64,000 nucleotides of DNA, taken from positions 2,105-66,104 of the forward strand of contig DATAQC010000047.1 of NCBI GenBank assembly GCA_036264885.1, written 5' to 3'. Positions 19,801-62,591 of the stretch are shown here, in pieces (within the stretch, counting starts at the first letter, position 1; each line of letters begins with the position of its first letter). This stretch comes from Acidimicrobiales bacterium. Its GTDB lineage: Bacteria > Actinomycetota > Acidimicrobiia > Acidimicrobiales > AC-14. The translations under genes and the position numbers were made by a program. The notes beneath the pieces were generated by a model. It was not told the DNA's origin and did not search any database. It worked only from the letters and a program-made list of their open reading frames with translations.

Positions 19801-20703
19801 ATGGTGCGCCACAGGATGGCCGACGAGACCGCAGTGAGACCACGCAGTCGCATGGGCGCCTACGTGGCCCTCACCAAGCCGCGGATCATCGAGTTGCTGC
19901 TCGTCACCACGCTGCCGACCATGGTGGTGGCCAAGCGGGGGCTGCCGTCGGGCTGGCTCGTCCTGGAGACCCTGGTCGGCGGGGCCCTGGCCGCTGCCGG
20001 CGCCAACACCATCAACATGTACATCGACCGCGACATCGACAAGCTCATGAAGCGGACGAGTCGCCGGCCCCTCGTCACCGGTGAGATCACGCCCACCAAC
20101 GCCATGGTGTTCGCCGTGACCCTCGAGGTGGCCGCCTTCGGCGAGCTGTGGCTGCTGGTGAACCTGCTGAGCGCCGTCCTGGCGGTGAGCGCCACCCTCT
20201 TCTACGTGTTCGTCTACACGCTCTGGCTCAAGCGCACCTCGTCGAACAACATCGTCATCGGAGGGGCGGCGGGCGCCGTGCCCGTCCTCGTCGGGTGGGC
20301 GGCGGTGCGCAACTCCCTGGGGCTGGCGCCGCTGGTTCTGTTCGCCATCATCTTCTACTGGACGCCGCCCCACTTCTGGGCCCTGGCCATCCGCTACCGG
20401 GAGGACTACGCGGTGGCCGACGTGCCCATGCTGCCGGTGGTGGCCTCCTTCGCCCAGACGGCCCGGAAGATCGTGATCTACACCCTCGTCCTGTGGGCCA
20501 TCACGCTGGTGTTCTGGCCGGTGGGGCAGATGGGCGACCTCTACCTGGCCTCGGCCATCGTGCTCGGTGGGGTGTTCACCTGGAAGGCCGTCCAGTTGGC
20601 CCGCAGCGGCACTCCCGAGCGGGCCATGAAGCTGTTCGGCTGGTCGATCACCTACGTCACCCTGCTGTTCGCGGCCATGGCCGTCGACCAGCTCATCCGC
20701 TAG
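19801..20703 (+). CDS. ctaB: Protoheme IX farnesyltransferase (heme O synthase)
   Basis: UbiA-family polytopic protein. Contains YVALTKPRIIELLL, NMYIDRDID and WTPPHFWALA. Confidence 0.9.
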   Translation: MVRHRMADETAVRPRSRMGAYVALTKPRIIELLLVTTLPTMVVAKRGLPSGWLVLETLVGGALAAAGANTINMYIDRDIDKLMKRTSRRPLVTGEITPTNAMVFAVTLEVAAFGELWLLVNLLSAVLAVSATLFYVFVYTLWLKRTSSNNIVIGGAAGAVPVLVGWAAVRNSLGLAPLVLFAIIFYWTPPHFWALAIRYREDYAVADVPMLPVVASFAQTARKIVIYTLVLWAITLVFWPVGQMGDLYLASAIVLGGVFTWKAVQLARSGTPERAMKLFGWSITYVTLLFAAMAVDQLIR

Positions 20704-20755: not shown

Positions 20756-22474
20756 ATGTCTGCGACCGACACGAGCGAGGCACACGAGGTGGAGGCTCCG
20801 GCCGCCGAAGAGGTTCCCGTCTCGGAGCCGTGGTCGCCCGGCACCGACCACAAGGTGGTGGGCACGCTGTTCGTGGTCGTGGGCCTGCTCTTCCTGGTGG
20901 CCGCCGGCGTGCTCGCCCTGGTCCTTCGGGCCCAGATGGCCGGTCCCGACGCCGGCGTGGTGGGGCGAACCACCTACCGCGAGCTGTACACCTTGCACGG
21001 CGTCCTTGGCGTGTTCTGCTTCCTGGGCCCGGTGTGGGTGGGACTGGCCACCGCCATGGTGCCCCTCCAGATCGGCGCCACCCGGCTGGCCTTCCCCCGC
21101 CTGCAGTCCCTGGCCCTCTGGCTGGTCGTGGTCGGGGGGGCGATGATCGTGGCCGCACCCTTCATGAACGGTGCCGACGTCATCAGCGGCTGGGCCCTGT
21201 CCACACCGGTCCCCGACGGAGCCTCGTTCTCCGGGCACGGACCCGACCTGTTGATCCTCGGTCTGGCCATCGTGTGCATCGCCTTGGTGGCGGCTTCGGT
21301 GAACCTGATGGTGACGGTGCTGAAGATGCGGGCTCCGGGTCTCACCCTGCGGCGCGCCCCCCTGTTCTCCTGGTCGGTGCTCGTTTCCAGCTCGATCCTG
21401 CTCCTGGCCCTGCCCGTGCTCGTCGGCGCGCTGGTCATGCTCTTCGTCGACCGCCACTACGGCGGGCACATCTTCAACGGCTTCACCGGCTCGGGCGGCG
21501 GTGACCCGCTCCTGTGGCCCCGACTGTTCTGGTTCGCCGCCTACCCCACGCTGTGGGCCCTGCTGCTGCCCGGCCTGGGCGTGGCCTCCGAGATCGTTCC
21601 CGTCGCCGCCCGCCGCCGCATGTTCTCCCACCAGCGGGCTACCCTCGCCATCGGGGCAGTCGGCATCCTCGCCTTCGCCGGGTGGGGTAGCCAGTTGCAC
21701 TCACTCACCCGGGCCCGCTTCATCTTCGGCGTCGGCGCCATCGTCGTCCTGTTGCCGGTCGCCTCGCTGCTGCTCAACTGGCTGGCCACCCTCGCCATCG
21801 CCATGCGCCAGCACACCGCGGGCCCCAAGAACCTCAAGACGGCCCCCATGGTCTATGCCGGCGGGTTCATCGCCCTCCTGGGCCTGGGAATGGTCGGTTG
21901 GGCCGCCGCCGTGGTGAGCGGCAACGCCGGCCGGTCCAACTACTGGCAGGCCGCCTCGCAGCACACCCTTTTCTTCGGTGCGGCCACGCTGGCGGTGGTG
22001 GCGGCGCTGGCGTACTGGGCTCCCAAGCTGTGGGGCCGGCACCTGTCGGACAAGGCCAGCCTGCCCACCTCGGTCCTGCTCAGCGGAGGCATGGTCGTCA
22101 CCTTCGGTGCCTTCTTCGTCCTCGCCTACCAGGGCCTGGCGATGCACGCGTCGTCGTTCTCCGACACCGACCTGACGCCGGCCAACCTGGTCGCCGGCAT
22201 CGGGTCGGCCATCACCGGTCTCGGTCTGCTGGCGTTCGTGGCCGACCTGTGCGTGAACGTGATCGCCGGGCGGGGCCGCCAGGCGGATCCCGACCCCTGG
22301 ACGGGCCACACCCTGGAATGGTCCACGTCGTCGCCCCCGCCGTCCTACAACTTCGACCGTCTGCCCGAGATCCGCTCCGAGGCGCCCATGCTCGACCTGC
22401 GTAGTGCATCCGACTCCCTTACCGGCCCCGGCGGCGTCCCCATCGCCGCCACCGTCGCCCGGGCGTCGGGATGA
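20756..22474 (+). CDS. Heme-copper oxidase subunit I paralogue lacking binuclear-centre ligands
   Basis: 572 aa. It aligns along its length with the canonical CtaD in this window at DHK, YxxLxTxHG, PLQIGA..LAFPRL, DPLLW, NWLAT, YW.PK..G..LSD and TLEWS. However GHPEVY is AYPTLW, WAHHMF is QLHSLT and AHFHY is ASQHT. Confidence 0.8.
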   Translation: MSATDTSEAHEVEAPAAEEVPVSEPWSPGTDHKVVGTLFVVVGLLFLVAAGVLALVLRAQMAGPDAGVVGRTTYRELYTLHGVLGVFCFLGPVWVGLATAMVPLQIGATRLAFPRLQSLALWLVVVGGAMIVAAPFMNGADVISGWALSTPVPDGASFSGHGPDLLILGLAIVCIALVAASVNLMVTVLKMRAPGLTLRRAPLFSWSVLVSSSILLLALPVLVGALVMLFVDRHYGGHIFNGFTGSGGGDPLLWPRLFWFAAYPTLWALLLPGLGVASEIVPVAARRRMFSHQRATLAIGAVGILAFAGWGSQLHSLTRARFIFGVGAIVVLLPVASLLLNWLATLAIAMRQHTAGPKNLKTAPMVYAGGFIALLGLGMVGWAAAVVSGNAGRSNYWQAASQHTLFFGAATLAVVAALAYWAPKLWGRHLSDKASLPTSVLLSGGMVVTFGAFFVLAYQGLAMHASSFSDTDLTPANLVAGIGSAITGLGLLAFVADLCVNVIAGRGRQADPDPWTGHTLEWSTSSPPPSYNFDRLPEIRSEAPMLDLRSASDSLTGPGGVPIAATVARASG

Positions 22475-23136
22475 CCATGACCGCTCCGGTCCGGGCCACG
22501 GCTCCGACGCCGGCCCCCGCCCCAGGGTTGTCGGCACCGGCGTTGCCTGCGGGCCGCGACGAGCCCATGCCTGCCGGCCGGCCCAACGGCACCACGCTGC
22601 TGGCCATGAAGTTGGTGCTGGCCGCCGACGCCATGGTCCTGGCCACGCTGCTGGTGGCCTACTTCACCATCAAGCAGGGCGCGCCGGTGTGGCCGCCCAA
22701 GGGCGTCAAGGTCGGCACCTACCTGCCCACCATCATCACCATCACCGCCGCCATGTCGGCGGCGTCGGGTTGTTGGATGCTGTTCTGCGTCCGTCGCAAC
22801 GACCAGCGCAACGCGGTGGCCGCCGCCGTGCTCACCGTCATCCTGGGGACGGCCGTGGCCAACGCCCAGTGGTACTCGATCACCAACCCCAAGTTCGGGG
22901 CCGATTCCCACGCCTACGGCTCCCTCTACAAGGTGATGCTCGGGTTCCACCTGGCCCATGTGGTCGCCGGCATGGTCATGATCGTGGTGGTCGCCGCCCA
23001 GGCCCTGGCCGGGCACTACGGCAGCGAAGACCACGAGCCCGTCTCCGCCGTCGTGTGGTTCTGGCAGTTCGCCAACGTCGCCTGGGTGGCCATCGTGGTG
23101 GCCCTGTTCGTCCTCAGCCCCCATGCCACCAAGTAG
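22471..23136 (+). CDS. Cytochrome oxidase subunit III-like paralogue (5-TM type)
   Basis: Its ATG overlaps the upstream stop (ATGA). MLGFHLAHVVAG and WFWQFANVAWV align with LTGFHGAHVTLG and LYWHFVDIVWI of the canonical CtaE in this window. Confidence 0.7.
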   Translation: MTMTAPVRATAPTPAPAPGLSAPALPAGRDEPMPAGRPNGTTLLAMKLVLAADAMVLATLLVAYFTIKQGAPVWPPKGVKVGTYLPTIITITAAMSAASGCWMLFCVRRNDQRNAVAAAVLTVILGTAVANAQWYSITNPKFGADSHAYGSLYKVMLGFHLAHVVAGMVMIVVVAAQALAGHYGSEDHEPVSAVVWFWQFANVAWVAIVVALFVLSPHATK

Positions 23137-23145
23137 GACGACCTC

Positions 23146-24123
23146 ATGCTGAGCCAGTCCTCCAAGGTCTTCCTTCCCCTCGCCGGGCTGTCTTTGGTGA
23201 TGGCTCTCGCCTACGGCATGGCCACCGGCAACACCGACGGCACGGTGCTGTTCTTCGGGTTGGTGGTGGCGGCCACGTTCGCGGGCGTCAGCGTGAGCGC
23301 GGCGCGGGAGAACGAGTTCGCCCCCCGGGTCGCCCCCGACGCCCCTCCACCCGAGTTGCACCGGGTGACGTGGGCCCGCCCCGTGGCCGGAGGGCTGTGG
23401 TCGGCCCTCGGCGCCGCTGCCGTCGGCCTGGCCGTCTGCGGGTTCATCGTCGGTCCCGTCCTGGCCGTCGCCGGCCTGGTGGTGGGGATCGCCGCCATCG
23501 TGGGCTGGATGACCAGCGTCTCGGCCGACCACACCGGCCGCCGTCTCGACCTGTCACCGCTCGCCATACCGGTGGTCGGGTTGTTCACCATCTTCTGCCT
23601 CATGTTCTCCATCTCCCGGGTGCTGCTGGCCGTGCCCGAGCAGGCCTCCACCGTCATCGCCATCGCCATCGCCATCACCATCCTGGGCACGGCTTCGCTC
23701 GTTAACTTCCGGCCCGGGCTGTCCAAGCGGTCGCTGCTCGCCGTCCTGGCCGTGGCCGGGGTGCTGTTCGCCGGTGGCGGGGTGGCGGCCGCCTCGTTCG
23801 GCCCGCGAACGATAGAGAAGCCCGAGGGCGTGGCCCCCGCCCCGGTGAAGCTCGCCGCCGCGGGCATCCAGTTCGTCAACAAGGACCTCACCGTCAAAGC
23901 CAACCTGCCCGCCGAGATCGTCTTCGACAACAAGGACAAGAACATCGTCCACAACGTCGCCGTGGCCAGCGACGCCGACTTCTCCCACCGGATCTTCACC
24001 GGCGACGTGGTACCCGGGCCCCGGACCATCGACTACAAGTTCAAGGCGCCGGCTGCCGGAACCTACTTCTTCCGCTGCGACATCCACCCCAGCATGCAGG
24101 GCAAGTTGACCGTGACCAAGTGA
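23146..24123 (+). CDS. Polytopic membrane protein with C-terminal type-1 copper cupredoxin domain
   Basis: About 6-7 hydrophobic helices are followed by IQFVNKDL.V......VFDNKD...HNV ... YFFRCDIHPSMQGKLTV. The ligand pattern H...C-x2-H-x2-M is amicyanin-like. It starts 9 nt after the upstream gene. Confidence 0.75.
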   Translation: MLSQSSKVFLPLAGLSLVMALAYGMATGNTDGTVLFFGLVVAATFAGVSVSAARENEFAPRVAPDAPPPELHRVTWARPVAGGLWSALGAAAVGLAVCGFIVGPVLAVAGLVVGIAAIVGWMTSVSADHTGRRLDLSPLAIPVVGLFTIFCLMFSISRVLLAVPEQASTVIAIAIAITILGTASLVNFRPGLSKRSLLAVLAVAGVLFAGGGVAAASFGPRTIEKPEGVAPAPVKLAAAGIQFVNKDLTVKANLPAEIVFDNKDKNIVHNVAVASDADFSHRIFTGDVVPGPRTIDYKFKAPAAGTYFFRCDIHPSMQGKLTVTK

Positions 24124-24232: not shown

Positions 24233-25240
24233 GTGAGCAGGACGCACAGACGGGTGCGCCTCGGCGTCATCCTCGCTCTGGCCGCCCTGGCGGTAGCCGC
24301 CTGTTCGTCGAACGCTCCCCAGACCACGCTCGACCCCCAGGGCCCGAACGCCCGCACCATCAGCCACCTCATCAACCCGGTGTTCTGGGTGGCAGGCGTC
24401 GTCTTCGTCCTGGTCGAGGGCATGGCGATCATCTTCGTCATCAAGTACCGCGACCGGGGCGATTCCCAGGAACCGGTGCAGATCCACGGCAACAGCCGCC
24501 TGGAGGTGGGCTGGACCCTCATCCCCGCCGCCATCCTGGTAGCCGTGGCCATCCCCACCATCGCCACCATATTCAAGCTGTCGAAGAAGCCTGCCCATGC
24601 CATCAACGTCACGGTGACGGCCCACCAGTGGTGGTGGGAGTACAACTACCCCGATCTGGGCGTGGTGACGGCCAACGAACTGCACATGCCGGTGAAGCAG
24701 CCGCTGGAGATCACCCTCATCGGTGCCGACGTGATCCACAGCTTCTGGGTGCCGGCGCTGGCGGGCAAGCAGGACGTGGTCCCGGGGCGGGTCAACCACA
24801 TGAACATGACCGGCGACAAGGTGGGCACCTTCCTCGGCCAGTGCACCGAGTTCTGCGGCTCCAGCCACGCCAACATGCGCCTGAAGGCGATGGTCCAGAC
24901 CCCTCAGGACTTCCAGTCGTGGGTCGCCAGCCAGCGCCAGGCGGCCGCCACTCCGACCGGCGGCTCTCCGGCCGACGAGGGCCTCACCCTGTTCACATCG
25001 AAGGGCTGCTCCGGCTGCCACACCGTGCAGGGTGTGTCGGACGGCAAGGTCGGTCCCAACCTCACCCACCTCCAGAGCCGCACCAGCTTCGCCGGCGCCA
25101 TCTTCACCATGAACCCGGACAACCTGAGCACCTGGCTGAAGAACCCGCCGGGCGTGAAACCCGGTTCCAAGATGCCCAATCTCAACCTGAGCGGCGACGA
25201 GATCTCCAAGCTCGTCGCCTACCTCGAGACCCTCAAGTGA
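24233..25240 (+). CDS. ctaC: Cytochrome c oxidase subunit II with fused C-terminal cytochrome c domain (caa3-type), lipoprotein
   Basis: Lipobox LAVAACSS. CuA site HSFWVP...CTEFCGSSHANM. C-terminal heme c site GCSGCH with a downstream KMPN. Confidence 0.9.
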   Translation: MSRTHRRVRLGVILALAALAVAACSSNAPQTTLDPQGPNARTISHLINPVFWVAGVVFVLVEGMAIIFVIKYRDRGDSQEPVQIHGNSRLEVGWTLIPAAILVAVAIPTIATIFKLSKKPAHAINVTVTAHQWWWEYNYPDLGVVTANELHMPVKQPLEITLIGADVIHSFWVPALAGKQDVVPGRVNHMNMTGDKVGTFLGQCTEFCGSSHANMRLKAMVQTPQDFQSWVASQRQAAATPTGGSPADEGLTLFTSKGCSGCHTVQGVSDGKVGPNLTHLQSRTSFAGAIFTMNPDNLSTWLKNPPGVKPGSKMPNLNLSGDEISKLVAYLETLK

Positions 25241-25277: not shown

Positions 25278-27455
25278 ATGACCATCGTCACCGATCCCCC
25301 CGCTCGCCCCCCGGTCGCCACACCGCCGGACCAGCCCATCCGGCTGCTCCGCCGGCCCACCGGTTACACCAAGGGCATCTGGTCCTGGGTGACCACCGTC
25401 GATCACAAGAAGATCGGCATCATGTACGGAGTCACCGCCTTCGTCTTCTTCCTGCTGGGCGGCATCGAGGCCCTGATGCTGCGCATCCAGCTGGGCTCGC
25501 CGAACAACACGTTCCTCAGTGCCGACACCTACAACCAGGTGTTCACCATGCACGGCACGACCATGATCTTCCTGTTCGTGATGCCGCTGTCGGCGGCGTT
25601 CGCCAACTACCTGATCCCGATACAGATCGGGGCGAGAGACGTGGCCTTCCCCCGCCTCAATGCCTTCGGGTACTGGGTCTTTCTCGTCGGTGGGCTGTTC
25701 ATGTACTCCAGCTTCATCCTGGGCGGCGCCCCCAACGGCGGGTGGTTCGGCTACGCCCCCAACACCCTCAAGCTCTACAACCCGGGCCACAACATCGACT
25801 TCTGGGTGTTCGGCCTGCAGATCCTCGGCATCGCCTCGCTCACCGGCGCGGTGAACCTGATCGTCACCGCCATCAACATGCGGGCGCCGGGCATGAGCCT
25901 GTTCCGCATGCCCATCTTCACCTGGATGTCGCTGGTGGCCCAGTTCCTGCTGCTGTTCGCCATCCCGGTCATCACGGTGGCGCTGTTCCTGCTCATGTTC
26001 GACCGCACCTTCGGGGCCAACTTCTTCAACGCCCAGGCAGGATCAGACCCACTTCTGTGGCAGCACCTCTTCTGGCTCTTCGGCCATCCGGAGGTCTACA
26101 TCCTCATCTTGCCAGCCATGGGGATCGTCTCAGAGGTGATCCCTGTCTTCGCTCGCAAGCCCCTGTTCGGCTACCAGGTGATGGTGTTCTCGGGCATCGC
26201 CATCGGCTTCATGGGCTGGGGCGTGTGGGCCCACCACATGTTCGCCACCGGCCTGGGCCCGGTGGCCACCTCGGCCTTCAGCGCCTCCACCATGTTCATC
26301 GCCGTCCCCACCGGGGTGAAGATCTTCAACTGGCTGGCCACCATGTGGCGGGGCAAGATCAAGACGAACGCGCCCATGCTCTTCGCCGTGGGCTTCGTGG
26401 CCATGTTCACCATCGGTGGGCTGTCGGGCGTGACCCACGGCGTGGTGCCCGCTGACACCCAGCAGACCGACACCTACTACGTGGTGGCCCACTTCCACTA
26501 CGTGCTGTTCGGTGGGAGCGTCTTCGGCCTGTTCGCCGGGATCTTCTACTGGTACCCCAAAGTGGTCGGCCACATGCTGTCCGACACGTTGGGCAAGATC
26601 CAGTTCTGGCTGTTCCTCATTGGGTTCAACATGACCTTCGGGCCCTTCCACATCCTGGGCCTCGAGGGCATGCCCCGGCGCATCTACACCTACCCGTCCC
26701 ACCGGGGCTGGGACTTTTGGAACATGATCTCCACCATCGGCTCCTTCGTCATCGCCGCCGCCGTCCTGCTGTTCATCTACAACGTGTGGAGCTCGAGGAA
26801 GAACCCCAAGGTCGGCAACGACCCGTGGGACGCCCGCACCCTGGAGTGGAGCATCCCGTCGCCGCCGCCGGAGTACAACTTCGCCGAGGTCCCGCTGGTC
26901 ACCGCCCGCGACGACCTGTGGCACCGCAAGTACACCGAGGACGAGAACGGACGCACCATTCCGCGCCATCCCGCCGACGCCCCCGCTGAAGCGGAGACCG
27001 AGGCGGTGGTGCGCGCCGCCGTCACCGACGACCCGTCCGGCGACGGCGACGGGTCCGGAGCCGATGCCAACCAAGGTGACGCCGCCCACGACGGCGACGC
27101 CCACGACGGCGACCCCGCCCGCGACGGTGACGCCCGCGACGGTGACGGTGACAGCCACGACGGCGACGCCGGCGGCCACGAGGAGCACGAGCCGCACGTC
27201 CACATGCCCTCCCCCTCGTACTGGCCCGCCTTCAGCTCGATCGGCCTGGCCGTCATTTCCTACGGGATGATCTACCGGGTGTGGGTCGTGGCCATCCTCG
27301 GCGGCCTGTGGGTGCTCGGCGGGCTCTACGCCTGGAGCCTGGAGCCGGCCACCGCCCCCGAAGAGCCCGAGCTCGACACCGAGCCGTCCACCGACCTCGA
27401 ACCCGTAGGCGTGGGGCCCGCAGGCACCGCCGCCGGCAGCGGGGGGTCGGACTGA
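25278..27455 (+). CDS. ctaD: Cytochrome c oxidase subunit I, with D/H-rich insertion and two extra C-terminal helices
   Basis: All canonical motifs are present: TMHG, WLFGHPEVYILILP, VWAHHMF and VVAHFHYVLFGG. A ~190-aa C-terminal extension contains PSPSYWP plus 2 TM helices, resembling the N-terminal helices of Cox3. Confidence 0.92.
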   Translation: MTIVTDPPARPPVATPPDQPIRLLRRPTGYTKGIWSWVTTVDHKKIGIMYGVTAFVFFLLGGIEALMLRIQLGSPNNTFLSADTYNQVFTMHGTTMIFLFVMPLSAAFANYLIPIQIGARDVAFPRLNAFGYWVFLVGGLFMYSSFILGGAPNGGWFGYAPNTLKLYNPGHNIDFWVFGLQILGIASLTGAVNLIVTAINMRAPGMSLFRMPIFTWMSLVAQFLLLFAIPVITVALFLLMFDRTFGANFFNAQAGSDPLLWQHLFWLFGHPEVYILILPAMGIVSEVIPVFARKPLFGYQVMVFSGIAIGFMGWGVWAHHMFATGLGPVATSAFSASTMFIAVPTGVKIFNWLATMWRGKIKTNAPMLFAVGFVAMFTIGGLSGVTHGVVPADTQQTDTYYVVAHFHYVLFGGSVFGLFAGIFYWYPKVVGHMLSDTLGKIQFWLFLIGFNMTFGPFHILGLEGMPRRIYTYPSHRGWDFWNMISTIGSFVIAAAVLLFIYNVWSSRKNPKVGNDPWDARTLEWSIPSPPPEYNFAEVPLVTARDDLWHRKYTEDENGRTIPRHPADAPAEAETEAVVRAAVTDDPSGDGDGSGADANQGDAAHDGDAHDGDPARDGDARDGDGDSHDGDAGGHEEHEPHVHMPSPSYWPAFSSIGLAVISYGMIYRVWVVAILGGLWVLGGLYAWSLEPATAPEEPELDTEPSTDLEPVGVGPAGTAAGSGGSD

Positions 27456-28084
27456 TGGTCGTCACCGCCAGCGAGGGCAGCCACACCGAGGACCCCGCCA
27501 TCCCCGAGGGCCACCCGCCCACGGCCACCGGGCTCAGCAACGAGAAGGTGGCGATGTGGGCCTTCCTGGGCTCGGAGTGCCTGCTCTTCGGTGCCCTCAT
27601 CTCGGTGTACCTGCTCTTCAAGGGCCAGAGCCAGCCCAACACCATCACCCCCAAGAACGTCTACGACATCCCCTTCACATCGGTCAGCTCGTTCGTGCTG
27701 CTGATGAGCTCGCTCACCATGGTGCTGGCCCTGGCCGCCATCCAACGGGGAGACCACCGCCGCCTGCGGATCTGGGTGCTCACCACCGCCCTGCTGGGGG
27801 CCACCTTCGTGGCGGGCCAGATGTACGAGTTCACCACCTTCTACAGCAAGGGCCTGAAGATCTCCACCAACCTGTTCGGGAGCAGCTTCTTCGTGCTCAC
27901 CGGCTTCCACGGGGCCCACGTCACCCTCGGCATCCTCATGCTCCTGACGCTGTGGAACCTGTCGGTGCGGGGGAAGCTCCCGGCCAACCGATCCGAGACG
28001 GTCGAACTGGTGGGCCTGTACTGGCACTTCGTCGATATCGTGTGGATCATCATCTTCACACTCGTCTACCTCATCCCGTCCTGA
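27455..28084 (+). CDS. ctaE: Cytochrome c oxidase subunit III (5-TM form)
   Basis: Contains GSECLLFGALI, GFHGAHV and LYWHFVDIVWI. The start overlaps the ctaD stop (TGATG). I trimmed it from track ORF 27281..28084. Confidence 0.88.
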   Translation: MVVTASEGSHTEDPAIPEGHPPTATGLSNEKVAMWAFLGSECLLFGALISVYLLFKGQSQPNTITPKNVYDIPFTSVSSFVLLMSSLTMVLALAAIQRGDHRRLRIWVLTTALLGATFVAGQMYEFTTFYSKGLKISTNLFGSSFFVLTGFHGAHVTLGILMLLTLWNLSVRGKLPANRSETVELVGLYWHFVDIVWIIIFTLVYLIPS

Positions 28085-28455
28085 TGGCCACTGAAGCCGA
28101 GATCGAAGAGACCGCCTTCCCCGACGGCGGCGCCGTCGTCGCTCACGCCACCGACGAGGCGGGCGCGCCGCACCCCCACAAGCACCCCACCGAGGGCCAG
28201 TACGTCCTCATCGCCCTGTTGCTCGCCGCCATCACCGGCGTCGAGGTGGCGGTCTATTACATCTCCGCGCTGGGAGACCTGCTGGTCCCCCTCCTGCTGC
28301 TCTTCGCCATCGTCAAGTTCAGCGTGGTGGTGGCCTTCTTCATGCACCTGCGCTTCGACAGCCGCCTGTTCCGCCGACTGTTCGTTCTCGGCCTGGGCCT
28401 GGCCATATTCGTGTTCACCGTCGTGTTGACCACCTTCCACTTCTGGTCCCGGTGA
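28084..28455 (+). CDS. ctaF: Cytochrome c oxidase subunit IV (prokaryotic COX4/CyoD-like)
   Basis: 123 aa with 3 TM helices. Contains KFS.VV.FFMHLRFD. The start overlaps the ctaE stop (TGATG). Confidence 0.75.
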   Translation: MATEAEIEETAFPDGGAVVAHATDEAGAPHPHKHPTEGQYVLIALLLAAITGVEVAVYYISALGDLLVPLLLLFAIVKFSVVVAFFMHLRFDSRLFRRLFVLGLGLAIFVFTVVLTTFHFWSR

Positions 28456-28456
28456 C

Positions 28457-29419
28457 ATGACCGGCGCGCTGGCCGCCGTGAGCTTTCCCGGGTGGCACGC
28501 CCACCCCGACGTCTGGGCCCTGCTGGGCGGCGTCCTGGCCGGTTACCTGTTGGCCGTCCGTGCCGGACGGGCCCGGGGATCGGTCACCACAGCCCGGCAG
28601 GTGGCCCTGTTCTGCTCGGGCGTGGCCGTGTTGTGGGTGGGATCGGACTGGCCCGTGCACGACCTGGCCGAGGGGTACCTCTACAGCTTCCACATGGTGC
28701 AGCACCTCTTGTTCACCCTGGTGGCCGCCCCCCTGCTGTTGCTGGGGACGCCGGCCTGGATGGGGCGCCGGCTCCTCGGTGTGGGGGCGGCCGGGGAGCC
28801 GTCCAGCCGCCGCCTCCCCGTGGTGAGATGGCTGGCCCGGCCCGTGCCCGGGCTCATCCAGTTCAACCTGGTGCTGGTGCTGAGCCACTGGCCGGCGGTG
28901 GTCGAGGCCACCCTGGTACACCACCCGTTGCACTTCGTGGCCCACGCCCTGCTCCTGGTGTCGGCCCTGCTCATGTGGATGCCTGTCGCCAGCACCGTTC
29001 CCGAGGTCCCTCGGGCCCGGCCGCCCACCCAGATGCTCTACCTGTTCCTCCAGACGATCATCCCCACCGTTCCCGCGTCGTTCCTGACCTTCGGGGACAA
29101 ACCGCTCTACCACATCTACGAGACCTTCCCCCGGCTGTGGGGCGTGGGGGCTCTCACCGACCAGCAGGTGGCCGGCCTGATCATGAAGCTGGCCGGCGGC
29201 TTCTACCTGTGGACGGTCATCGCCGTGATCTTCTTCCGCTGGTACCAGCGTGAGGAAGCCGAGAACGCCTCCGGCCCCGGGCCTCCCGGCCGCCCGGCCG
29301 AGCCGCCGCCCAAGGCCGACGACGACGTCCTTCTCTGGGCCGACGTGGAACAGGAGTTGCGCCGACTCGACGCACCCTCGGGGGGCTCTGCCCCCCGAGT
29401 CCCCCCTGAAGTCAACTAG
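28457..29419 (+). CDS. ctaG: Cytochrome c oxidase assembly factor CtaG (Bacillus caa3_CtaG type)
   Basis: Polytopic protein. Contains the SFHMVQHLLFTLVAAPLLLLGTP motif. It starts 1 nt after the ctaF stop. Confidence 0.8.
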   Translation: MTGALAAVSFPGWHAHPDVWALLGGVLAGYLLAVRAGRARGSVTTARQVALFCSGVAVLWVGSDWPVHDLAEGYLYSFHMVQHLLFTLVAAPLLLLGTPAWMGRRLLGVGAAGEPSSRRLPVVRWLARPVPGLIQFNLVLVLSHWPAVVEATLVHHPLHFVAHALLLVSALLMWMPVASTVPEVPRARPPTQMLYLFLQTIIPTVPASFLTFGDKPLYHIYETFPRLWGVGALTDQQVAGLIMKLAGGFYLWTVIAVIFFRWYQREEAENASGPGPPGRPAEPPPKADDDVLLWADVEQELRRLDAPSGGSAPRVPPEVN

Positions 29420-30862: not shown

Positions 30863-30997
30863 GTGACCGGGGCGCAGACGGTGTTCGTGATCGCCCTGAG
30901 CGTCATCGCCGTGATCATCGGCGCATTCGCCGTCTACGTGGCCAGCTCCACCATGTGGGCCGACCGGTGGTACGACAGGCGGGGACGCCGGCGATGA
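30863..30997 (+). CDS. Small hydrophobic peptide (44 aa), hypothetical
   Basis: Not in the ORF track because it is under 60 aa. A GTG start gives VTGAQTVFVIALSVIAVIIGAFAVYVASSTMWADRWYDRRGRRR. GC3 is high. Its stop overlaps the sdhC ATG (ATGA at 30994-30997). Confidence 0.35.
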   Translation: MTGAQTVFVIALSVIAVIIGAFAVYVASSTMWADRWYDRRGRRR

Positions 30998-31428
30998 GCG
31001 TCACGGATGGCCGGCCTCCCGCCCGACCGGTTGGGCCCGAGCGGTCGCACGAGCGCAGTCCCGGGCGCCGGCCCTACCGGGGAAGGACCGGCCAGTGGGC
31101 CTTCGTCGGTCACCGGGTCAGTGGGTTCCTGGTGTTCTTCTTCCTCCTGCTGCACATCGTCGACGTCTCCCTGGTGCGCTGGCCGGCGACCTATGACGAC
31201 GTCCACGCCGTGTACGGCAATGTGGTCCTGCGTCTGTTCGAGGTGGGCCTGCTGTTCGCCCTCGTGTTCCATTCCCTCAACGGGCTGCGCATCGTGGCCG
31301 TCGACTTCTTCCCCGGAGCGGTCAAGAACGAGCGCCGGCTGCTGAGCGCGGTGGTGGTCATGACCCTGCTCCTCGGCATCCCCGGGGCGTGGATGATCAT
31401 GCTCCCGTTCGTGCGAGGCCACTTTTGA
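30994..31428 (+). CDS. sdhC: Succinate dehydrogenase cytochrome b subunit
   Basis: Contains WAFVGHRVSGFLVFFFLLLHIVD and HSLNGLRI, the heme-ligand His context. I chose the start at the ATG coupled to the upstream small ORF; the track start at 30955 is an alternative. Confidence 0.8.
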   Translation: MSVTDGRPPARPVGPERSHERSPGRRPYRGRTGQWAFVGHRVSGFLVFFFLLLHIVDVSLVRWPATYDDVHAVYGNVVLRLFEVGLLFALVFHSLNGLRIVAVDFFPGAVKNERRLLSAVVVMTLLLGIPGAWMIMLPFVRGHF

Positions 31429-31823
31429 GCCCCGTCCGCTCCGAGCGGGCCGACGCACTCCAGGCGCGAGCTACTTCGCCCCGGCGCCGGCGCAGCTTCG
31501 AGACGTGGTCGTGGTTCTTCATGCGCCTGTCGGGGCTGGCCCTGGTGTTCCTGGCCCTGATCCACTTCACCATCACCCATATCGCCAACGACGTGGTGAC
31601 CACCAACCACGCCTTCGTGGCCGAGCGTTGGGACAACCCGCTGTGGCGCCTATTCGACTGGTCACTGCTGGCCCTGGCCCTGGCTCACGGGCTCACCGGC
31701 CTGCGCCGCATCATCCACGACTACGTGCGGCGCCCGGCGATGCGACGGATGGCCCTGATCGCCATGGTGGGCGTCAGCGGAGCTCTGTTCGCCTGGGGCA
31801 CGTTCACCATCGTCACGTTCTGA
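31425..31823 (+). CDS. sdhD: Succinate dehydrogenase hydrophobic membrane anchor subunit
   Basis: FETWSWFFMRLSGLALVFLALIHF...W.NPLWRLFDWSLL.LAL.HGL.GLR.II.DY resembles actinobacterial SdhD. The start is uncertain: TTG at 31425 overlapping the sdhC stop, or ATG at 31389. Confidence 0.75.
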   Translation: MSPVRSERADALQARATSPRRRRSFETWSWFFMRLSGLALVFLALIHFTITHIANDVVTTNHAFVAERWDNPLWRLFDWSLLALALAHGLTGLRRIIHDYVRRPAMRRMALIAMVGVSGALFAWGTFTIVTF

Positions 31824-33294: not shown

Positions 33295-33600
33295 ATGAAG
33301 TTCCTGGTCGTGTGGAAGATGGAGATCTCCCGGCTGTCGACGGACATGATGAAGACCGTCCTGCGGATGCCCGACTTCGCCAAGCCGCTGGAGGAGAGCG
33401 GCAAGGTGGTGGGGCGCTACCACATCGTCGGCTACCACGGCGGGGCGTGGATCTTCGACGTTGGGTCCAACGACGAGCTCGAGATGCTGCTGGCCCAGAT
33501 GCCGGTGTACAACCTCTCCCACTTCGACGTGTACCCGTTGGCCGACATGTCATCGTTGCCGGTGGTCCCCCCTGGTGAGGGGAGCGGCTCGGGCGGGTAG
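33295..33600 (+). CDS. Small alpha/beta protein, DUF3303 / muconolactone-isomerase-like
   Basis: The ATG is preceded by GAGGAGG at 33283-33289. The MKFLVVWKME... N-terminus is typical of this fold family, though my recognition is weak. Confidence 0.55.
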   Translation: MKFLVVWKMEISRLSTDMMKTVLRMPDFAKPLEESGKVVGRYHIVGYHGGAWIFDVGSNDELEMLLAQMPVYNLSHFDVYPLADMSSLPVVPPGEGSGSGG

Positions 33601-33652
33601 GCACAACCACGAGCAGACCCTTCGTCTGCCCGCGAGACGGGAGGACATACCC

Positions 33653-34510
33653 ATGGCTCTGCAGCTCGTCGAGGACCTGCTCGAGCGTCTCCACCAGGCC
33701 GAGGCGCTCGACCGGGTGGCCAAGCCCGTGTCGAGCTTCGTGGCTGAGGTCATCCCCCACGGCGTGGTCAAAGACGCCCTGTCGGGAACCTGGCTGGGTC
33801 ATCCCCTGCACCCCATGCTCACCGACGTGGCCATCGGCTCGTGGACCAGCGCCTTGGTGATCGACGCCCTCGGCCGGGACGGCAGCGAGGCGGCGGCCGA
33901 CACCCTGGTGGGCATCGGCGTTCTCAGCGCCCTGCCCACAGCCGCCGCCGGCCTGGCCGACTGGTCGGACCTGTTGGGATCCGAGCGCCGCGTGGGCCTG
34001 GTCCACGCCGGCGCCAACATCGTGGCCGTCAGCCTCTACGGGTGGTCGTGGCTGGTCCGGCGCAGGGGCCATCGCGGCCGCGGGGTGGCACTGAGCCTGC
34101 TGGGGGCCACTGTGGCCACCGTCGGCGGGTACCTGGGCGGCCACCTGTCCTACCGCCAGGGAGTCAACGTCGACCGCAACGCCTGGGAGGACGGACCCGG
34201 CGACTGGGTCGACACCGTCGACGCCGCCGACCTGGCCGAGGGCGCCCCCGCCGTCACCTCGGCCGGTGGCATCGACGTCATGCTCGTGCGCCGGGGCGAC
34301 ACCATCCTGGCCATCGCCGACGTGTGCGGTCATGCCGGAGGGCCGCTGCACGAAGGTGAGATCGACGGCGACTGCGTCACCTGCCCCTGGCACGCCAGCA
34401 CCTTCCGGCTGTCCGACGGCGCCGCGATCCACGGTCCTGCCACCGCTCCCCAACCCGCGTTCGACACCCAGGTGGCGGTCGGCCGCGTCCAGGTCCGGCG
34501 CCGAGCCTGA
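33653..34510 (+). CDS. DUF2231-like membrane domain fused to a Rieske [2Fe-2S] domain
   Basis: The N-terminal region has GHPLHPMLTDV plus 4 TM helices. The C-terminal Rieske ligands are CGHAGGPL and CPWHAS. The ATG start at 33653 has an upstream GGGAGGA. Confidence 0.75.
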   Translation: MALQLVEDLLERLHQAEALDRVAKPVSSFVAEVIPHGVVKDALSGTWLGHPLHPMLTDVAIGSWTSALVIDALGRDGSEAAADTLVGIGVLSALPTAAAGLADWSDLLGSERRVGLVHAGANIVAVSLYGWSWLVRRRGHRGRGVALSLLGATVATVGGYLGGHLSYRQGVNVDRNAWEDGPGDWVDTVDAADLAEGAPAVTSAGGIDVMLVRRGDTILAIADVCGHAGGPLHEGEIDGDCVTCPWHASTFRLSDGAAIHGPATAPQPAFDTQVAVGRVQVRRRA

Positions 34511-57985: not shown

Positions 57986-58888
57986 TCAGCCGGTGGTGCT
58001 GGTGAACTCGGCGACCCGCTGGCTCGAGTGGCCCACCGGGGGCGGTGCGGATGCGCGGGCGGGGCGCAGGAAAACCACCATGGTGGGGACGAGGTAGGCC
58101 AGCCACACCGCCAGCTCGAGGCGGGACGGTGTGGGGCTGACGCTGAACAAGCCCTTCCACAGCGATCCCCACCAGCTCGACGGCGGCAGGATGCCGCTGG
58201 CGTCGAAGACCACGTGGCCCAGGCCCCCGAAGGTGAGGTACCCCGCCTCTTGGAGATCGTGCATGCCGTAGGCCAGCACGCCCGCAGCCACGACCACCAG
58301 ACCGGCGCCGGTGTAGCGGAAGAACCGGGCCAGGTTGATCTGAACCGAGCGACGGTACACGAGGTACCCGAGCACGAACGCGGTCGACAGGCCCAACGTG
58401 GCCCCGGCCACCGGCGTGAACGTGGACCCGGTCGACTGCACCGCCGTCCAGATGAAGAGGGCGGTCTCCAGGCCCTCCCGTGCGACGGCCACGAAGGCGG
58501 TGAAGGCGAGGGCGCCGGTGCCCATGGCCAGGGCCGAGTCGAGACGGTCGTGGAGCTCGCCCTTCAGGTGCCGGGCCGTCCGGCGCATCCAGAAGATCAT
58601 CCAGGTGACCAGGGCCACGGCCAGTACCGACATGACCCCACCGAAGGCCTCCTGGGCCTTGAACGTGAGCGAGTGCGAGGTGAAGGTGAGCAGGGCCCCC
58701 GCCGCCAGGCTGATGGCGGCTGCCGCCCCGGCGCCGATCCAGACCGAGCGCAGGGCGCCGCGGCGGTCGGTTCGCACGAGGTACGCCACGAGGATGCTGA
58801 CGACGAGCGCCGCTTCCAGCCCCTCTCGTAACCCGATCAAGAAGTTGGCGAGCACGGTCCGGTCCCTTCGTCGACCTGGCGTGAGCAC
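57986..58888 (-). CDS. FTR1/EfeU-family high-affinity iron permease
   Basis: Two REGLE motifs are present (GLREGLEAAL and AREGLETAL) with 7 TM helices. The start is either GTG at 58888 or GTG at 58855. Confidence 0.85.
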   Translation of the reverse strand: MLTPGRRRDRTVLANFLIGLREGLEAALVVSILVAYLVRTDRRGALRSVWIGAGAAAAISLAAGALLTFTSHSLTFKAQEAFGGVMSVLAVALVTWMIFWMRRTARHLKGELHDRLDSALAMGTGALAFTAFVAVAREGLETALFIWTAVQSTGSTFTPVAGATLGLSTAFVLGYLVYRRSVQINLARFFRYTGAGLVVVAAGVLAYGMHDLQEAGYLTFGGLGHVVFDASGILPPSSWWGSLWKGLFSVSPTPSRLELAVWLAYLVPTMVVFLRPARASAPPPVGHSSQRVAEFTSTTG

Positions 58889-59828: not shown

Positions 59829-60728
59829 ATGTCCGACCAGACCCCTGCCCAGGGGCGGTTCCCGGGCGATGCGTCCCCCGGCTCGTCAGGCAACGGCGCA
59901 GCGCCGCGGCCTCCCGGGTGGGAAGAGCCGCCGGCGGTCGACGGCGCCGACGGCGCCGACCTCGGCAATGCTGCCAGCGCCGACTTCGGCGACGCCGACG
60001 GTGGTCGGTCGCGCAGCCAGCGCCGCATTCCCGAAGCCACCGTTGCCCGCCTGCCCGTGTACCTGCGGTGCCTGGTCGAGCTGGCCGACCTCAAGACGGT
60101 GACGGCCTCGTCGGAGCGCCTGGCCGAGATGGGTGGCGTCAACGCCGCCAAGGTCCGCAAAGACCTTTCCTACCTCGGGTCCTACGGCACCCGGGGAGTC
60201 GGCTACGAGGTCGACAACCTCATCGTGCACATCTCGCGGATACTCGGTCTCACCCAGGACTGGCCGGTGGTGATCGTGGGCATCGGCAACCTGGGCCACG
60301 CCCTGGCCAAGTACCGGGGCTTTGCCGCCCGGGGGTTCCGGGTGGTGGCGCTGGTCGACGCCGACCGGTCCAAGGTCGGCGAGCGGCTCGAGGGCCTCGA
60401 GGTCCGCCATCTCGACGAGCTGCCTCAGATCGCCGCCGACGAGCAGGTCGCCATCGGCATCATCGCCACACCGGCTGCTGCCGCCCAGGACGTGGCCGAT
60501 CGGTTGGTGGCCGCCGGCGTGTCGTCGATCCTCAACTTCGCCCCGGCGATCGTCACCGTGCCCGCCGGGGTGTCGGTGCGCAAGGTCGACCTGTCCATCG
60601 AGTTGCAGATCCTGTCCTACCACCAGCAGCGGCGGGGAGCCGCAGCCGAATCCGCCCTCAGGACCGCCTCCGCCCTGGTCGCCGATGACGAGGCTGCGGC
60701 GGTGGAGGTCCAGGGAGCAGACCGCTGA
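59829..60728 (+). CDS. rex: Redox-sensing transcriptional repressor Rex, with ~55-aa low-complexity N-terminal extension
   Basis: Contains RLP.YLR.L, SS..LA...GV.AA.VRKDLSYLGSYG.RGVGY and the Rossmann motif VGIGNLG. I trimmed it from track ORF 59364..60728. Confidence 0.88.
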   Translation: MSDQTPAQGRFPGDASPGSSGNGAAPRPPGWEEPPAVDGADGADLGNAASADFGDADGGRSRSQRRIPEATVARLPVYLRCLVELADLKTVTASSERLAEMGGVNAAKVRKDLSYLGSYGTRGVGYEVDNLIVHISRILGLTQDWPVVIVGIGNLGHALAKYRGFAARGFRVVALVDADRSKVGERLEGLEVRHLDELPQIAADEQVAIGIIATPAAAAQDVADRLVAAGVSSILNFAPAIVTVPAGVSVRKVDLSIELQILSYHQQRRGAAAESALRTASALVADDEAAAVEVQGADR

Positions 60729-61357
60729 TGGTCGACCTCGACACCGCCTATCCCGTCAACCTGCTGGTGGCCGGTCGACCCTGCCTGGTCGTGGGTGGCG
60801 GCACGGTGGCGGCCCGCAAGGTGGAAGGCCTTCTGGCCTGTGACGCCTCCGTCCGGGTGGTCTCACCTGTCGTCGACGACGAGATCCGGGGGTGGCCCGA
60901 GGTCACCGTCGACCAGCGGCCCTACCGCCGGGGCGACGTCGACGGCCAGCGCCTCGTCATCTCCGCCACCGACTCGTCCGAGGTCAACCGGGCCGTGTAT
61001 CTCGATTGCGAGGCGGCCGGAGTGTGGGTGTGCGGCGCCGACGACCCCGACAACTGCTCGTTCACCCTGCCGTCGGTCGTGCGCCGGGGCACCCTGGTGG
61101 TCACCGTGGCCACCGGGGGCCGCAGCCCGGCCGTGGCCCGGTGGCTGCGCGAGCGGTTGGAGGCCCAGATCGGCCCCGAGTACGAGGTCCTGCTCGACCT
61201 GGTGGCCGATCAGCGGGCCGCGGTCAAGGCCGAGGGCCGCAGCCCGTCCCAGCTCGACTGGCAGAAAGCGCTGGACTCGGACATGCTCGATCTGATTCGC
61301 ACCGGTGACCTGGAGTCCGCGAGAAAGCGCCTGGAGACGTGTCTGTCGTTGTCGTAG
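60728..61357 (+). CDS. Precorrin-2 dehydrogenase / sirohydrochlorin ferrochelatase (siroheme synthase N-terminal type)
   Basis: Contains YPVNLLVAGRPCLVVGGG.VA.RKV..LL. Confidence 0.8.
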   Translation: MVDLDTAYPVNLLVAGRPCLVVGGGTVAARKVEGLLACDASVRVVSPVVDDEIRGWPEVTVDQRPYRRGDVDGQRLVISATDSSEVNRAVYLDCEAAGVWVCGADDPDNCSFTLPSVVRRGTLVVTVATGGRSPAVARWLRERLEAQIGPEYEVLLDLVADQRAAVKAEGRSPSQLDWQKALDSDMLDLIRTGDLESARKRLETCLSLS

Positions 61358-62589: not shown

Positions 62590-62591
62590 GC

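Follow-up and report, generated by a model that had tools for sequence, protein, structure and literature searches.

We analysed a 64,000-nt stretch of DNA, here called the window, from a metagenome-assembled genome of an Acidimicrobiales bacterium (GCA_036264885.1, contig DATAQC010000047.1), in which three consecutive genes, here named X1, X3 and XC, stand between ctaB and the cytochrome oxidase genes ctaC, ctaD, ctaE, ctaF and ctaG. Our main subject is X1, a homologue of subunit I of the heme-copper oxidases (HCO), together with its two partners: X3, which resembles subunit III, and XC, a membrane protein with a type-1 (blue) copper domain. A preliminary description had proposed that X1 is a subunit I paralogue that keeps the bis-His site of the low-spin heme and has lost the binuclear centre at which O2 is reduced. 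This was borne out by a Pfam COX1 search, by BLASTP and by an alignment with 120 homologues, and we consider it very probable that X1 is a non-catalytic oxidase relic that has been retained by selection.

The gene order in the window, with ctaB followed by the trio, ctaC-D-E-F and ctaG, had been given correctly (Table 1), and serS and two Sdh_cyt genes follow downstream of ctaG. The oxidase is of the caa3 type, since ctaC carries a fused cytochrome c domain. Scores above the respective cut-offs were obtained for ctaC (TIGR02866 CoxB, 196 bits) and for ctaD (TIGR02891, 734 bits), and ctaE matched the NCBIfam models QoxC, CyoC and aa3_CtaE_Actin at about 136 bits each. The G+C content of the window is about 70%. 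Intergenic distances are short: 52 nt between ctaB and X1, 9 nt between X3 and XC, and about 130 nt between XC and ctaC. The distance from X1 to X3 is 92 nt with the public-record start of X3; with a start at 22471, X3 would overlap X1 by 4 nt. A scan for promoters and terminators found no terminator-like site in the intergenic gaps from ctaB to ctaG and no promoter-like site; the five terminator-like sites that it did find are all intragenic, and their number is close to chance expectation. The trio and the caa3 genes probably form one operon.

Table 1. Genes of the oxidase cluster and other features of the window (positions in the 64,000-nt stretch)
Feature	Position	Strand	Description and evidence
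ctaB	19801..20703	+	Heme O synthase, UbiA family; Pfam UbiA E 6e-63; directly upstream of the trio
X1	20756..22474	+	Subunit-I-like, 572 amino acids; Pfam COX1 E 3e-70
X3	22567..23136	+	Subunit-III-like; Pfam COX3 E 4e-17
XC	23146..24123	+	Membrane protein with type-1 cupredoxin domain, 325 amino acids; Pfam Cupredoxin_1 E 2e-8
ctaC	24254..25240	+	Canonical subunit II, CuA cupredoxin with fused cytochrome c domain; Pfam COX2_TM, COX2, Cytochrom_C
ctaD	25278..27455	+	Canonical subunit I, with the six His ligands, Glu, Tyr and Lys all present; Pfam COX1 E 2e-160
ctaE	27455..28084	+	Canonical subunit III, five-helix form; Pfam COX3
ctaF	28084..28455	+	caa3-type subunit IV; Pfam COX4_pro; TIGR02229 caa3_sub_IV 40 bits, over cut-off
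ctaG	28457..29419	+	Caa3_CtaG assembly factor; Pfam Caa3_CtaG E 4e-47
Sdh_cyt (two genes)	30955..31823		
DUF2231-Rieske gene	33461..34510	+	Membrane protein, DUF2231 with C-terminal Rieske [2Fe-2S] domain
FTR1-type gene	57986..58888	-	Iron permease, near the window end
Heme-synthesis block	60728..63512	+	Siroheme-synthase-like NAD-binding protein, glutamyl-tRNA reductase, porphobilinogen deaminase

X1 and its two partners

The reading frame of X1 is intact and of normal codon style, as had been noted, with 572 codons and a G+C content at third codon positions (GC3) of 0.92, similar to that of the neighbouring genes. The Pfam COX1 domain covers X1 at profile positions 2-436 of 436, BLASTP aligns it with the CtaD of the window at 33% identity over 539 residues (E 2e-96), and its best sequence match among solved structures is 6hwh_V, the aa3 CtaD of the mycobacterial supercomplex (E 4e-82, HMMER). 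An AlphaFold2 model built on 30 homologues (predicted local distance difference test score, pLDDT, 79; predicted template modelling score, pTM, 0.82) has 12 long helices and matches solved A-family subunit I structures with TM-scores of 0.77-0.80 (Foldseek). X1 also shows the A-family C-terminal motif TLEW..SPPP..NF. It is thus a true HCO subunit I homologue of the A-family type with the 12-helix fold. Against the CtaD/CoxA equivalog model TIGR02891, it scores 366 bits, below the cut-off of 670.75 bits. A protein identical to X1 is present in public records under the label 'cbb3-type cytochrome c oxidase subunit I', and many members of the families A, B and C described below are publicly labelled in the same way or as 'cytochrome c oxidase subunit I'.

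Both histidines of the low-spin heme are kept in X1, namely H81 (20996-20998), within the helix II motif YRELYTLHG, and H403 (21962-21964) in helix X. R58 (20927-20929) is kept as well; we take its position to be that of the Arg whose side chain, in canonical enzymes, forms a hydrogen bond with the heme a formyl group, and its retention hints that the heme of X1 would be heme A. The residues of the binuclear centre are replaced. Helix VI reads DPLLWPRLFWFAAYPTLWALLLP, in which the CuB His has become Y263 (21542-21544), the D-channel Glu T265 and the cross-link Tyr W267, and in helix X (YWQAASQHTL) the heme a3 His has become S401 (21956-21958). All the motifs and substitutions that had been quoted for helices II, VI and X are present in X1. 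They are read directly from the sequence, so that chance does not come into question.

For helix VII, it had been claimed that at most one of the two CuB histidines remains. The loss was confirmed, but the possible survivor was not. BLASTP agrees with the preliminary hand alignment in pairing GWGVWAHHMF with GWGSQLHSLT, which sets H315 opposite a CuB His, whereas MAFFT with the 120 homologues (121 sequences) and HMMER against solved actinobacterial CtaD both pair AGWGSQ with AVWAHH, which places S312 and Q313 (21689-21694) at the His-His pair. In orthologues, the position of H315 is variable and holds P, A, G, T, N or S. Since S312 and Q313 replace the His pair and H315 is not conserved, no CuB ligand is left in X1, and in profile alignment only the low-spin pair of the six canonical ligand positions carries His.

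The proton channels have been lost as well, with the entry Asp of the D-channel replaced by R110 and the Lys of the K-channel by L338, and the two heme-propionate Arg residues are replaced by M463 and H464. A site of the nitric oxide reductase (NOR) type, which consists of a high-spin heme His and a three-His non-heme metal site, often with an additional Glu, has none of its four histidines in X1, and Q313 (Glu in most relatives) takes a His position instead of being added to His residues. Because the ligands of the binuclear centre and the known proton paths are absent, X1 is, by the established chemistry of the family and as read from its residues, unable to reduce O2 or NO or to pump protons by known routes. 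The earlier verdict that it cannot be an oxidase or an NO reductase is therefore upheld by the absence of all four active-site histidines.

The heme-copper oxidases rank among the most thoroughly studied membrane enzymes, and, to our knowledge, their six His ligands are treated as universal. As had been supposed, no characterised HCO family with the ligand pattern of X1 was found in the literature searched, and X1 lies far under the CtaD cut-off. Among characterised proteins, the A-family oxidases are nearest to X1. Compared with the actinobacterial aa3 CtaD (PDB 6HWH, 6ADQ, 7RH5), X1 is alike in its 12-helix fold, its bis-His low-spin heme site and its C-terminal motif, and differs in lacking the CuB ligands, the heme a3 ligand, the cross-link Tyr, the D-channel Asp and Glu and the K-channel Lys. 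According to Murali et al. 2024 (PMC11214002), gNOR was the first HCO family in which even one active-site His is replaced. The eNOR, bNOR, sNOR, gNOR and nNOR families described there share with X1 the superfamily and the absence of the cross-link Tyr, and none of them, like X1, is an O2 reductase; X1 differs from them in that all three CuB histidines and the heme a3 His are gone and in its A-family parentage. The family of X1 lies outside the coverage of that study.

The second gene of the trio, X3, encodes 189 amino acids from its public-record start, or 221 if translation begins at the ATG at 22471 that overlaps the stop codon of X1. Its Pfam COX3 match reaches 63 bits against a cut-off of 23.8. 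The best NCBIfam model for X3 is aa3_CtaE_Actin, at 70 bits against a cut-off of 190, and X3 falls under every NCBIfam equivalog cut-off.

XC has seven predicted transmembrane helices followed by a C-terminal beta domain; its AlphaFold2 model, built from the single sequence, has a pLDDT of 50 and was used for secondary structure alone. The C-terminal domain is a type-1 (blue) copper cupredoxin with the ligand pattern H...C-x2-H-x2-M, and the predicted copper ligands are H269 (23950-23952), C311 (24076-24078), H314 (24085-24087) and M317 (24094-24096). These four residues are at least 90% conserved in 42 loci and are invariant in families A, B and C. In profile searches of the PDB, the closest solved relatives of this domain are auracyanin A (1e-12) and amicyanin (1.5e-8), and hhalign matches the copper site of XC to that of CuA in CtaC with a probability of 89%, a loop of five residues being absent from XC. 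The N-terminal part of XC matches CtaF chains by profile (6adq_H, E 0.007; 7q21_F, E 0.02), and PF12270 scores 19-25 bits in five of seven XC orthologues, against a cut-off of 26.9, with nearly the whole profile covered. The XC of the window itself has no PF12270 match, and a weak precomputed match is recorded in a more distant relative (L053). The first four helices of XC thus bear a weak but repeated sequence resemblance to the actinobacterial oxidase subunit IV (CtaF). We also considered XC as a possible fusion of CtaF and CtaC; hhalign pairs the cupredoxin domains only and not the transmembrane parts.

Taken together, the trio reads as a degenerate oxidase core of subunits I, III and putatively IV, in which a blue-copper domain takes the place of the CuA of subunit II. 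It descends from core genes of an A-family, actinobacterial-type cytochrome oxidase. As in the actinobacterial aa3 oxidase, the subunit I homologue is partnered with subunit-III-like and subunit-IV-like proteins, but the trio has no subunit II and carries instead a type-1 copper domain on its subunit-IV-like protein. A variant of this origin, in which the trio would be the vertically inherited relic of a native aa3 oxidase and the caa3 oxidase a foreign, later arrival, is not supported beyond the preference of X3 for the actinobacterial CtaE model: X1 is 33% identical to both the CtaD of the window and that of M. smegmatis, and a weak match of the subunit IV type is also seen in the canonical CtaD of one relative.

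With respect to its copper domain, XC resembles the auracyanin of Chloroflexus, a membrane-anchored blue-copper electron carrier of the respiratory chain: its C-terminal domain is a type-1 cupredoxin, and XC is membrane-tethered and encoded with oxidase genes. Sulfocyanin SoxE, of the Sulfolobus SoxM complex, is another membrane-anchored blue-copper carrier that may be comparable. XC differs from both in having a seven-helix anchor, of which the first four helices are subunit-IV-like, in place of a single helix or a lipid, and in being always paired with degenerate homologues of subunits I and III.

Conservation of the module in Acidimicrobiia

A search of 5.8 billion proteins yielded, among the matches listed, 120 clusters (90% identity) that are each at least 53% identical to X1. 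We call this set family A, and all of its named clusters derive from metagenome-assembled genomes of Acidimicrobiia or Actinomycetota. The two low-spin heme histidines are kept in all 120 clusters, and the cross-link Tyr is Trp in all 120 as well. The CuB His of helix VI is replaced by Tyr in 109 clusters and by Phe in the other 11, and the His pair of helix VII by Ser (115/120) followed by Glu (102) or Gln (18). W267, Q402 and H464 are invariant, and Y/F263, S312 and E/Q313 nearly so. Two other positions are variable, that of the heme a3 His (T, Q, E, S, Y or M) and that of the D-channel Glu (L, T, M or V). The proposed check on whether the substitutions of X1 are conserved in orthologues therefore had a divided outcome: the changes of Tyr to Trp, of His to Tyr or Phe and of His-His to Ser plus Glu or Gln are conserved, whereas the Glu and heme a3 His sites vary. 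Conserved residues in the place of lost ligands raise the possibility of a new catalytic site, in which the replacing Tyr, Trp, Ser, Glu/Gln, Gln and His would bind another metal or a substrate. The invariance of W267, Q402 and H464, and the near-invariance of the other three positions, speak for such a site, but the heme a3 His position is variable within family A itself and no proton pathway is left; the comparison with other families, given below, bears on it further.

A scan of species-representative genomes found 46 X1 loci, all in Acidimicrobiia. Wherever the contig extends far enough, the order in these loci is ctaB, X1, X3, XC, ctaCDEFG. Related loci were viewed as about 10 kb around each COX1-like gene; in all related loci with enough upstream sequence ctaB precedes this gene, and X3 follows X1 in all those with enough downstream sequence.

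Rates of substitution were estimated by the Nei-Gojobori method in seven genome pairs. The ratio of nonsynonymous to synonymous rates (dN/dS) is 0.19-0.36 for X1, 0.17-0.50 for X3 and 0.22-0.33 for XC, while ctaD has 0.11-0.29 and ctaF and ctaG have 0.15-0.61, values that are comparable between genes only, given that dS is probably underestimated at a GC3 above 0.9. X1 is within the range of ctaC, ctaF and ctaG, and is under purifying selection that is somewhat relaxed.

These data bear on the suggestion that X1 is a decaying duplicate, a functionless pseudogene in the making. Several observations are of the kind that decay would produce. In the closer pairs the dN/dS of X1 is about twice that of ctaD, X1 is 30-38% identical between lineages whose ctaD is about 70% identical, and cofactor ligands erode along lineages. 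However, reading frames are intact and full-length in hundreds of clusters and at least 46 species, dN/dS is well under 1, codon usage is normal and synteny is fixed, and the few split hits come from long-read assemblies in which ctaC and ctaD are split too (L043, L047). Decay is hardly credible and is contradicted by these data. The preliminary description had likewise argued for retention over decay, and this agrees with the 120 clusters that carry the pattern, the 46 syntenic loci and the dN/dS of X1; the frameshifts and random substitutions expected in orthologues of a decaying gene were not what we found, as the orthologous frames are intact.

Some loci of family A hold additional genes. 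In about half of them, the space between ctaB and X1 contains, on the opposite strand, a divergent second gene of the Caa3_CtaG-like kind. It is 29-36% identical to ctaG (for example L007 5371-6012, L017 7044-7685 and L031 6970-7629, all on the minus strand) and is absent from the window. Some loci carry an insert of 3-6 kb between XC and ctaC (L015 11897-14500, L018 11954-14671, L022 7173-10415 and L044 10909-12780). Inspection of the translations by eye suggests that it encodes a metal ABC importer similar to ZnuABC and, in L022, also a Fur-type regulator; this gives no functional clue. Two genomes have two copies of the X1 locus on separate contigs, SMAG_U6663 (L019 and L028) and Holy_71 (L005 and L040). 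The copies of Holy_71 are 95% and 54% identical to X1. Such double copies may be two paralogous loci or the product of mixed bins.

Cofactor loss in deeper relatives

For a deeper set, 1.84 billion representatives were searched exhaustively with HMMER, and the best 150 hits (50%-identity clusters) were taken. In 74 of these best 150 clusters the set of CuB ligands is incomplete, and about 45 of the 74 non-canonical clusters group with X1, away from the canonical A-family, in a rough neighbour-joining tree. Within the 74, both low-spin histidines are kept in 40 clusters and both are lost in 23, with 11 split; judged by these counts, the low-spin His pair behaves as one functional unit.

Six such lineages were inspected, and all occupy one genomic slot. 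The slot has the order (ClpS, DUF2017, sometimes ctaA), ctaB, COX1-like gene, COX3-like gene, third gene, (TlpA-like gene), ctaCDEF(G), serS, sdhCD. In families B and C, ctaA is located just upstream of ctaB. A thiol-disulfide gene of the TlpA/Redoxin type stands between the third gene and ctaC in these two families and in the P0222 lineage.

The cofactor ligands differ between these lineages. Family A, to which the window belongs, has the low-spin His pair only and keeps the copper ligands. Family B (P0124 type) has both low-spin histidines in 120/120 clusters, and in addition the heme a3 His in 80/120, with the copper ligands kept. The P0222 lineage again has the low-spin pair only together with the copper ligands. 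Family C (P0209 type) keeps the copper ligands, and its two low-spin histidines are lost in 49/50 and 50/50 clusters, along with the Arg of helix I. Finally, the P0258 and P0202 lineages have no heme His and have lost all four copper ligands, with the copper domain and the three genes intact in the same slot. These fully cofactor-less modules are found at L053 8001-11266 and L055 2350-5615, and all three reading frames are intact in each.

Family B is of particular relevance to the idea of a new catalytic site. Here the Glu is kept as E or D in 120/120 clusters and the Tyr in 105/120, the CuB His of helix VI is Arg in 120/120, and the His pair of helix VII is deleted (for example L048 10001-11656; also L049), a pattern that could, on its residues, form a two-heme, copper-free site. 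With the heme a3 His retained in two thirds of its clusters, family B might thus hold a heme-only catalytic centre. On the other hand, the residues at the replaced positions are not the same from family to family. Families A, B and C have only 58 alignment columns in common, nearly all of which canonical CtaD shares too; among their shared derived characters, the change of Asp to Arg at the entrance of the D-channel is the clearest. On balance, a new catalytic site as the function of the module is very improbable.

Another degenerate subunit I, P0156 (604 amino acids, without heme or CuB His), is a ligand-less COX1 homologue encoded at L056 1947-5642 in the order COX2, COX1-like gene, ctaB. 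It is a second case, independent of the first, in which a degenerate subunit I is paired with ctaB.

A comparable protein has been reported from Acetobacter, where a 'deranged' COX1-like protein that lacks all metal-binding residues is kept beside ctaB and a structural role was proposed for it, according to the account in PMC10715153, which traces the report to Matsutani et al. 2014. Compared by that description, it shares with X1 that an HCO subunit I homologue with lost ligands lies next to ctaB. X1 differs in keeping the low-spin heme pair and in belonging to another phylum, and the account, as far as it describes the Acetobacter gene, reports no COX3-like or cupredoxin partner. The loss of all metal ligands described there is seen in the COX1-like proteins of family C, P0258 and P0202, and not in X1.

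Possible roles of the module and its surroundings

The explanation that we favour overall, by a modest margin over even chances, is that the trio is a three-protein relic oxidase tied to the caa3 oxidase, whose core selected role is structural. Because the module persists after the loss of the heme ligands and, in two lineages, after the loss of the copper ligands too, the role common to the whole family is most likely structural. X1, X3 and XC would form one membrane complex, as inferred from sequence, that works with the caa3 oxidase. In the window lineage, the conservation of the low-spin heme pocket of X1 and of the blue-copper site of XC supports the view that both are under selection, and the probable cofactor content of the complex is one heme, in X1, and one type-1 copper, carried by XC on the outer face, where the copper domain would replace subunit II. 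Electron transfer may run between the copper and the heme, or from XC, through its copper domain, to the cytochrome c domain of CtaC. The structural role could be that of a scaffold or partner of the oxidase or of a respiratory supercomplex, or of biogenesis beside CtaB, with the redox cofactors as an accessory that erodes lineage by lineage. As a specific mechanism, a structural module with an optional electron relay comes near to an even chance without quite reaching it. The preliminary description had offered a non-catalytic or novel redox or assembly role. The structural or assembly part of this is strengthened by our results, whereas a novel redox function is weakened, as a function of the whole family, by the ligand-less orthologues.

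Several points weigh against a structural role for the family as a whole. The strict conservation of the heme His pair and of the copper ligands in families A and B argues for a redox role there, and a blue-copper site requires an electron donor and an acceptor. The functions of the families may have diverged, so that 'structural' would possibly be true of the most eroded lineages only. Moreover, the assignment of XC to subunit IV depends on sub-threshold matches, and the restriction on dN/dS given above applies to the evidence for selection.

The redox evidence has been combined into a different explanation, in which the trio is a dedicated electron-transfer complex and XC, with its type-1 copper, makes up a working redox chain with X1 and its bis-His heme. 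In one version, XC would be a tethered blue-copper shuttle that is loaded with electrons by a bc-type complex or some other donor and delivers them to the cytochrome c domain of the caa3 oxidase, in the manner of auracyanin or sulfocyanin elsewhere; in another, the trio would be a quinol:cupredoxin oxidoreductase with the emptied binuclear pocket as its quinone site. This explanation accounts well for the invariance of H269, C311, H314 and M317 in families A, B and C, for the retention of the low-spin His pair in 240/240 clusters of families A and B, and for the constant position of the module beside caa3 genes. The closest solved cupredoxins, auracyanin and amicyanin, are electron carriers, and polar residues are well conserved at the old active site in family A (Y/F263, S312, E/Q313, Q402, H464). 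Nevertheless, orthologues without heme ligands (family C), or without both heme and copper ligands (P0258, P0202), are still intact, and electron transfer is therefore not the function of the whole family. The polar residues of the old active site are not common to families A, B and C. In addition, the quinol-site residues of the bo3 type are not present in X1, which has T73 and an Ala at the positions that we take to be those of E. coli His98 and Asp75 (alignment read by eye). We regard a dedicated electron-transfer complex as somewhat unlikely.

A narrower form of the quinol version is that the trio is a quinol:cupredoxin oxidoreductase that feeds the caa3 oxidase as an alternative to the bc complex, with blue copper in place of CuA. 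A quinone could be the partner of the heme, bound in the emptied heme a3/CuB pocket, lined by the conserved Tyr, Ser, Glu/Gln, Gln and His, the copper of XC would exchange electrons with the heme of X1, and the cofactor-less lineages would represent secondary losses. Such an enzyme seems quite improbable.

The position of the module next to ctaB also suggests a biogenesis factor, with the trio as a scaffold or chaperone in the assembly of the caa3 oxidase that would stabilise CtaB or CtaA, retain heme O or heme A until it is inserted, or take charge of the copper destined for CuA or CuB. X1 follows ctaB in all loci that extend upstream, and ctaA is close by in families B and C. The second CtaG-like gene of about half of the family A loci, and the TlpA/Redoxin-type gene that families B and C have between XC and ctaC, would fit such a role. 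So would the ligand-less P0156, which also adjoins ctaB, and the comparable ligand-less Acetobacter protein encoded beside ctaB, which is suggested, in the account cited above (PMC10715153), to stabilise CtaB. There are, however, several difficulties. The gene ctaB adjoins oxidase operons in many bacteria, and its adjacency to X1 is perhaps inherited from the duplication. Type-1 copper sites bind copper tightly and serve as electron carriers, and they are not known as copper donors. Proteins of 12, 5 and 7 helices are a heavy apparatus for a chaperone, and the handling of heme is not a role that all could share, because family C lacks the His pair. A biogenesis factor as the primary role of the trio is thus improbable.

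Always beside its working oxidase, an entire class of Actinomycetota keeps a second oxidase core under selection, without a binuclear centre and with blue copper in place of subunit II. We found no published description of the X1/X3/XC trio or of such a graded loss of cofactors in full-text literature searches; the nearest precedent, and the one relevant match, was the account of the Acetobacter gene. Blake 2016 reports that a-type cytochromes dominate the Fe(II)-reduced spectra of Acidimicrobium and Ferrimicrobium, which is a lead and not evidence. The lineages form a natural series, from two heme sites with copper to one heme with copper, to copper only and to no cofactor, that would show a relic enzyme in the course of becoming a structural subunit, and the series poses the question of what use an oxidase scaffold has after catalysis, be it as an electron relay, in the architecture of supercomplexes or in biogenesis. 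New chemistry is not demonstrated, and the function of the trio is inferred. The findings also have a practical consequence, in that hundreds of entries labelled 'cbb3-type cytochrome c oxidase subunit I' cannot be oxidases; a count of them would inflate the oxidase content of these genomes, a point that bears on predictions of oxygen respiration from metagenomes.

The subunit I of the working oxidase in the window has a C-terminal extension. The C-terminal 175 residues of its CtaD (26925-27455) include an acidic, Asp/Gly/His-rich linker of low complexity (about 27027-27200) with DGDAHDGD-like repeats, followed by two transmembrane helices that start with HMPSPSYWP, which we recognise as, presumably, the N-terminal motif of subunit III. 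The working oxidase would thus have a fusion of subunit I with an N-terminal part of subunit III, beside the five-helix CtaE.

Further downstream, the gene for the DUF2231-Rieske membrane protein lies 2 kb beyond the two Sdh_cyt genes, and neither sdhA nor sdhB could be recognised in the stretch between. The reading frames of the window that were scanned, some frames and gaps being unchecked, included no qcr gene and no cytochrome b gene. Near the end of the window are the gene for an FTR1-type iron permease and a heme-synthesis block of three genes (Table 1).

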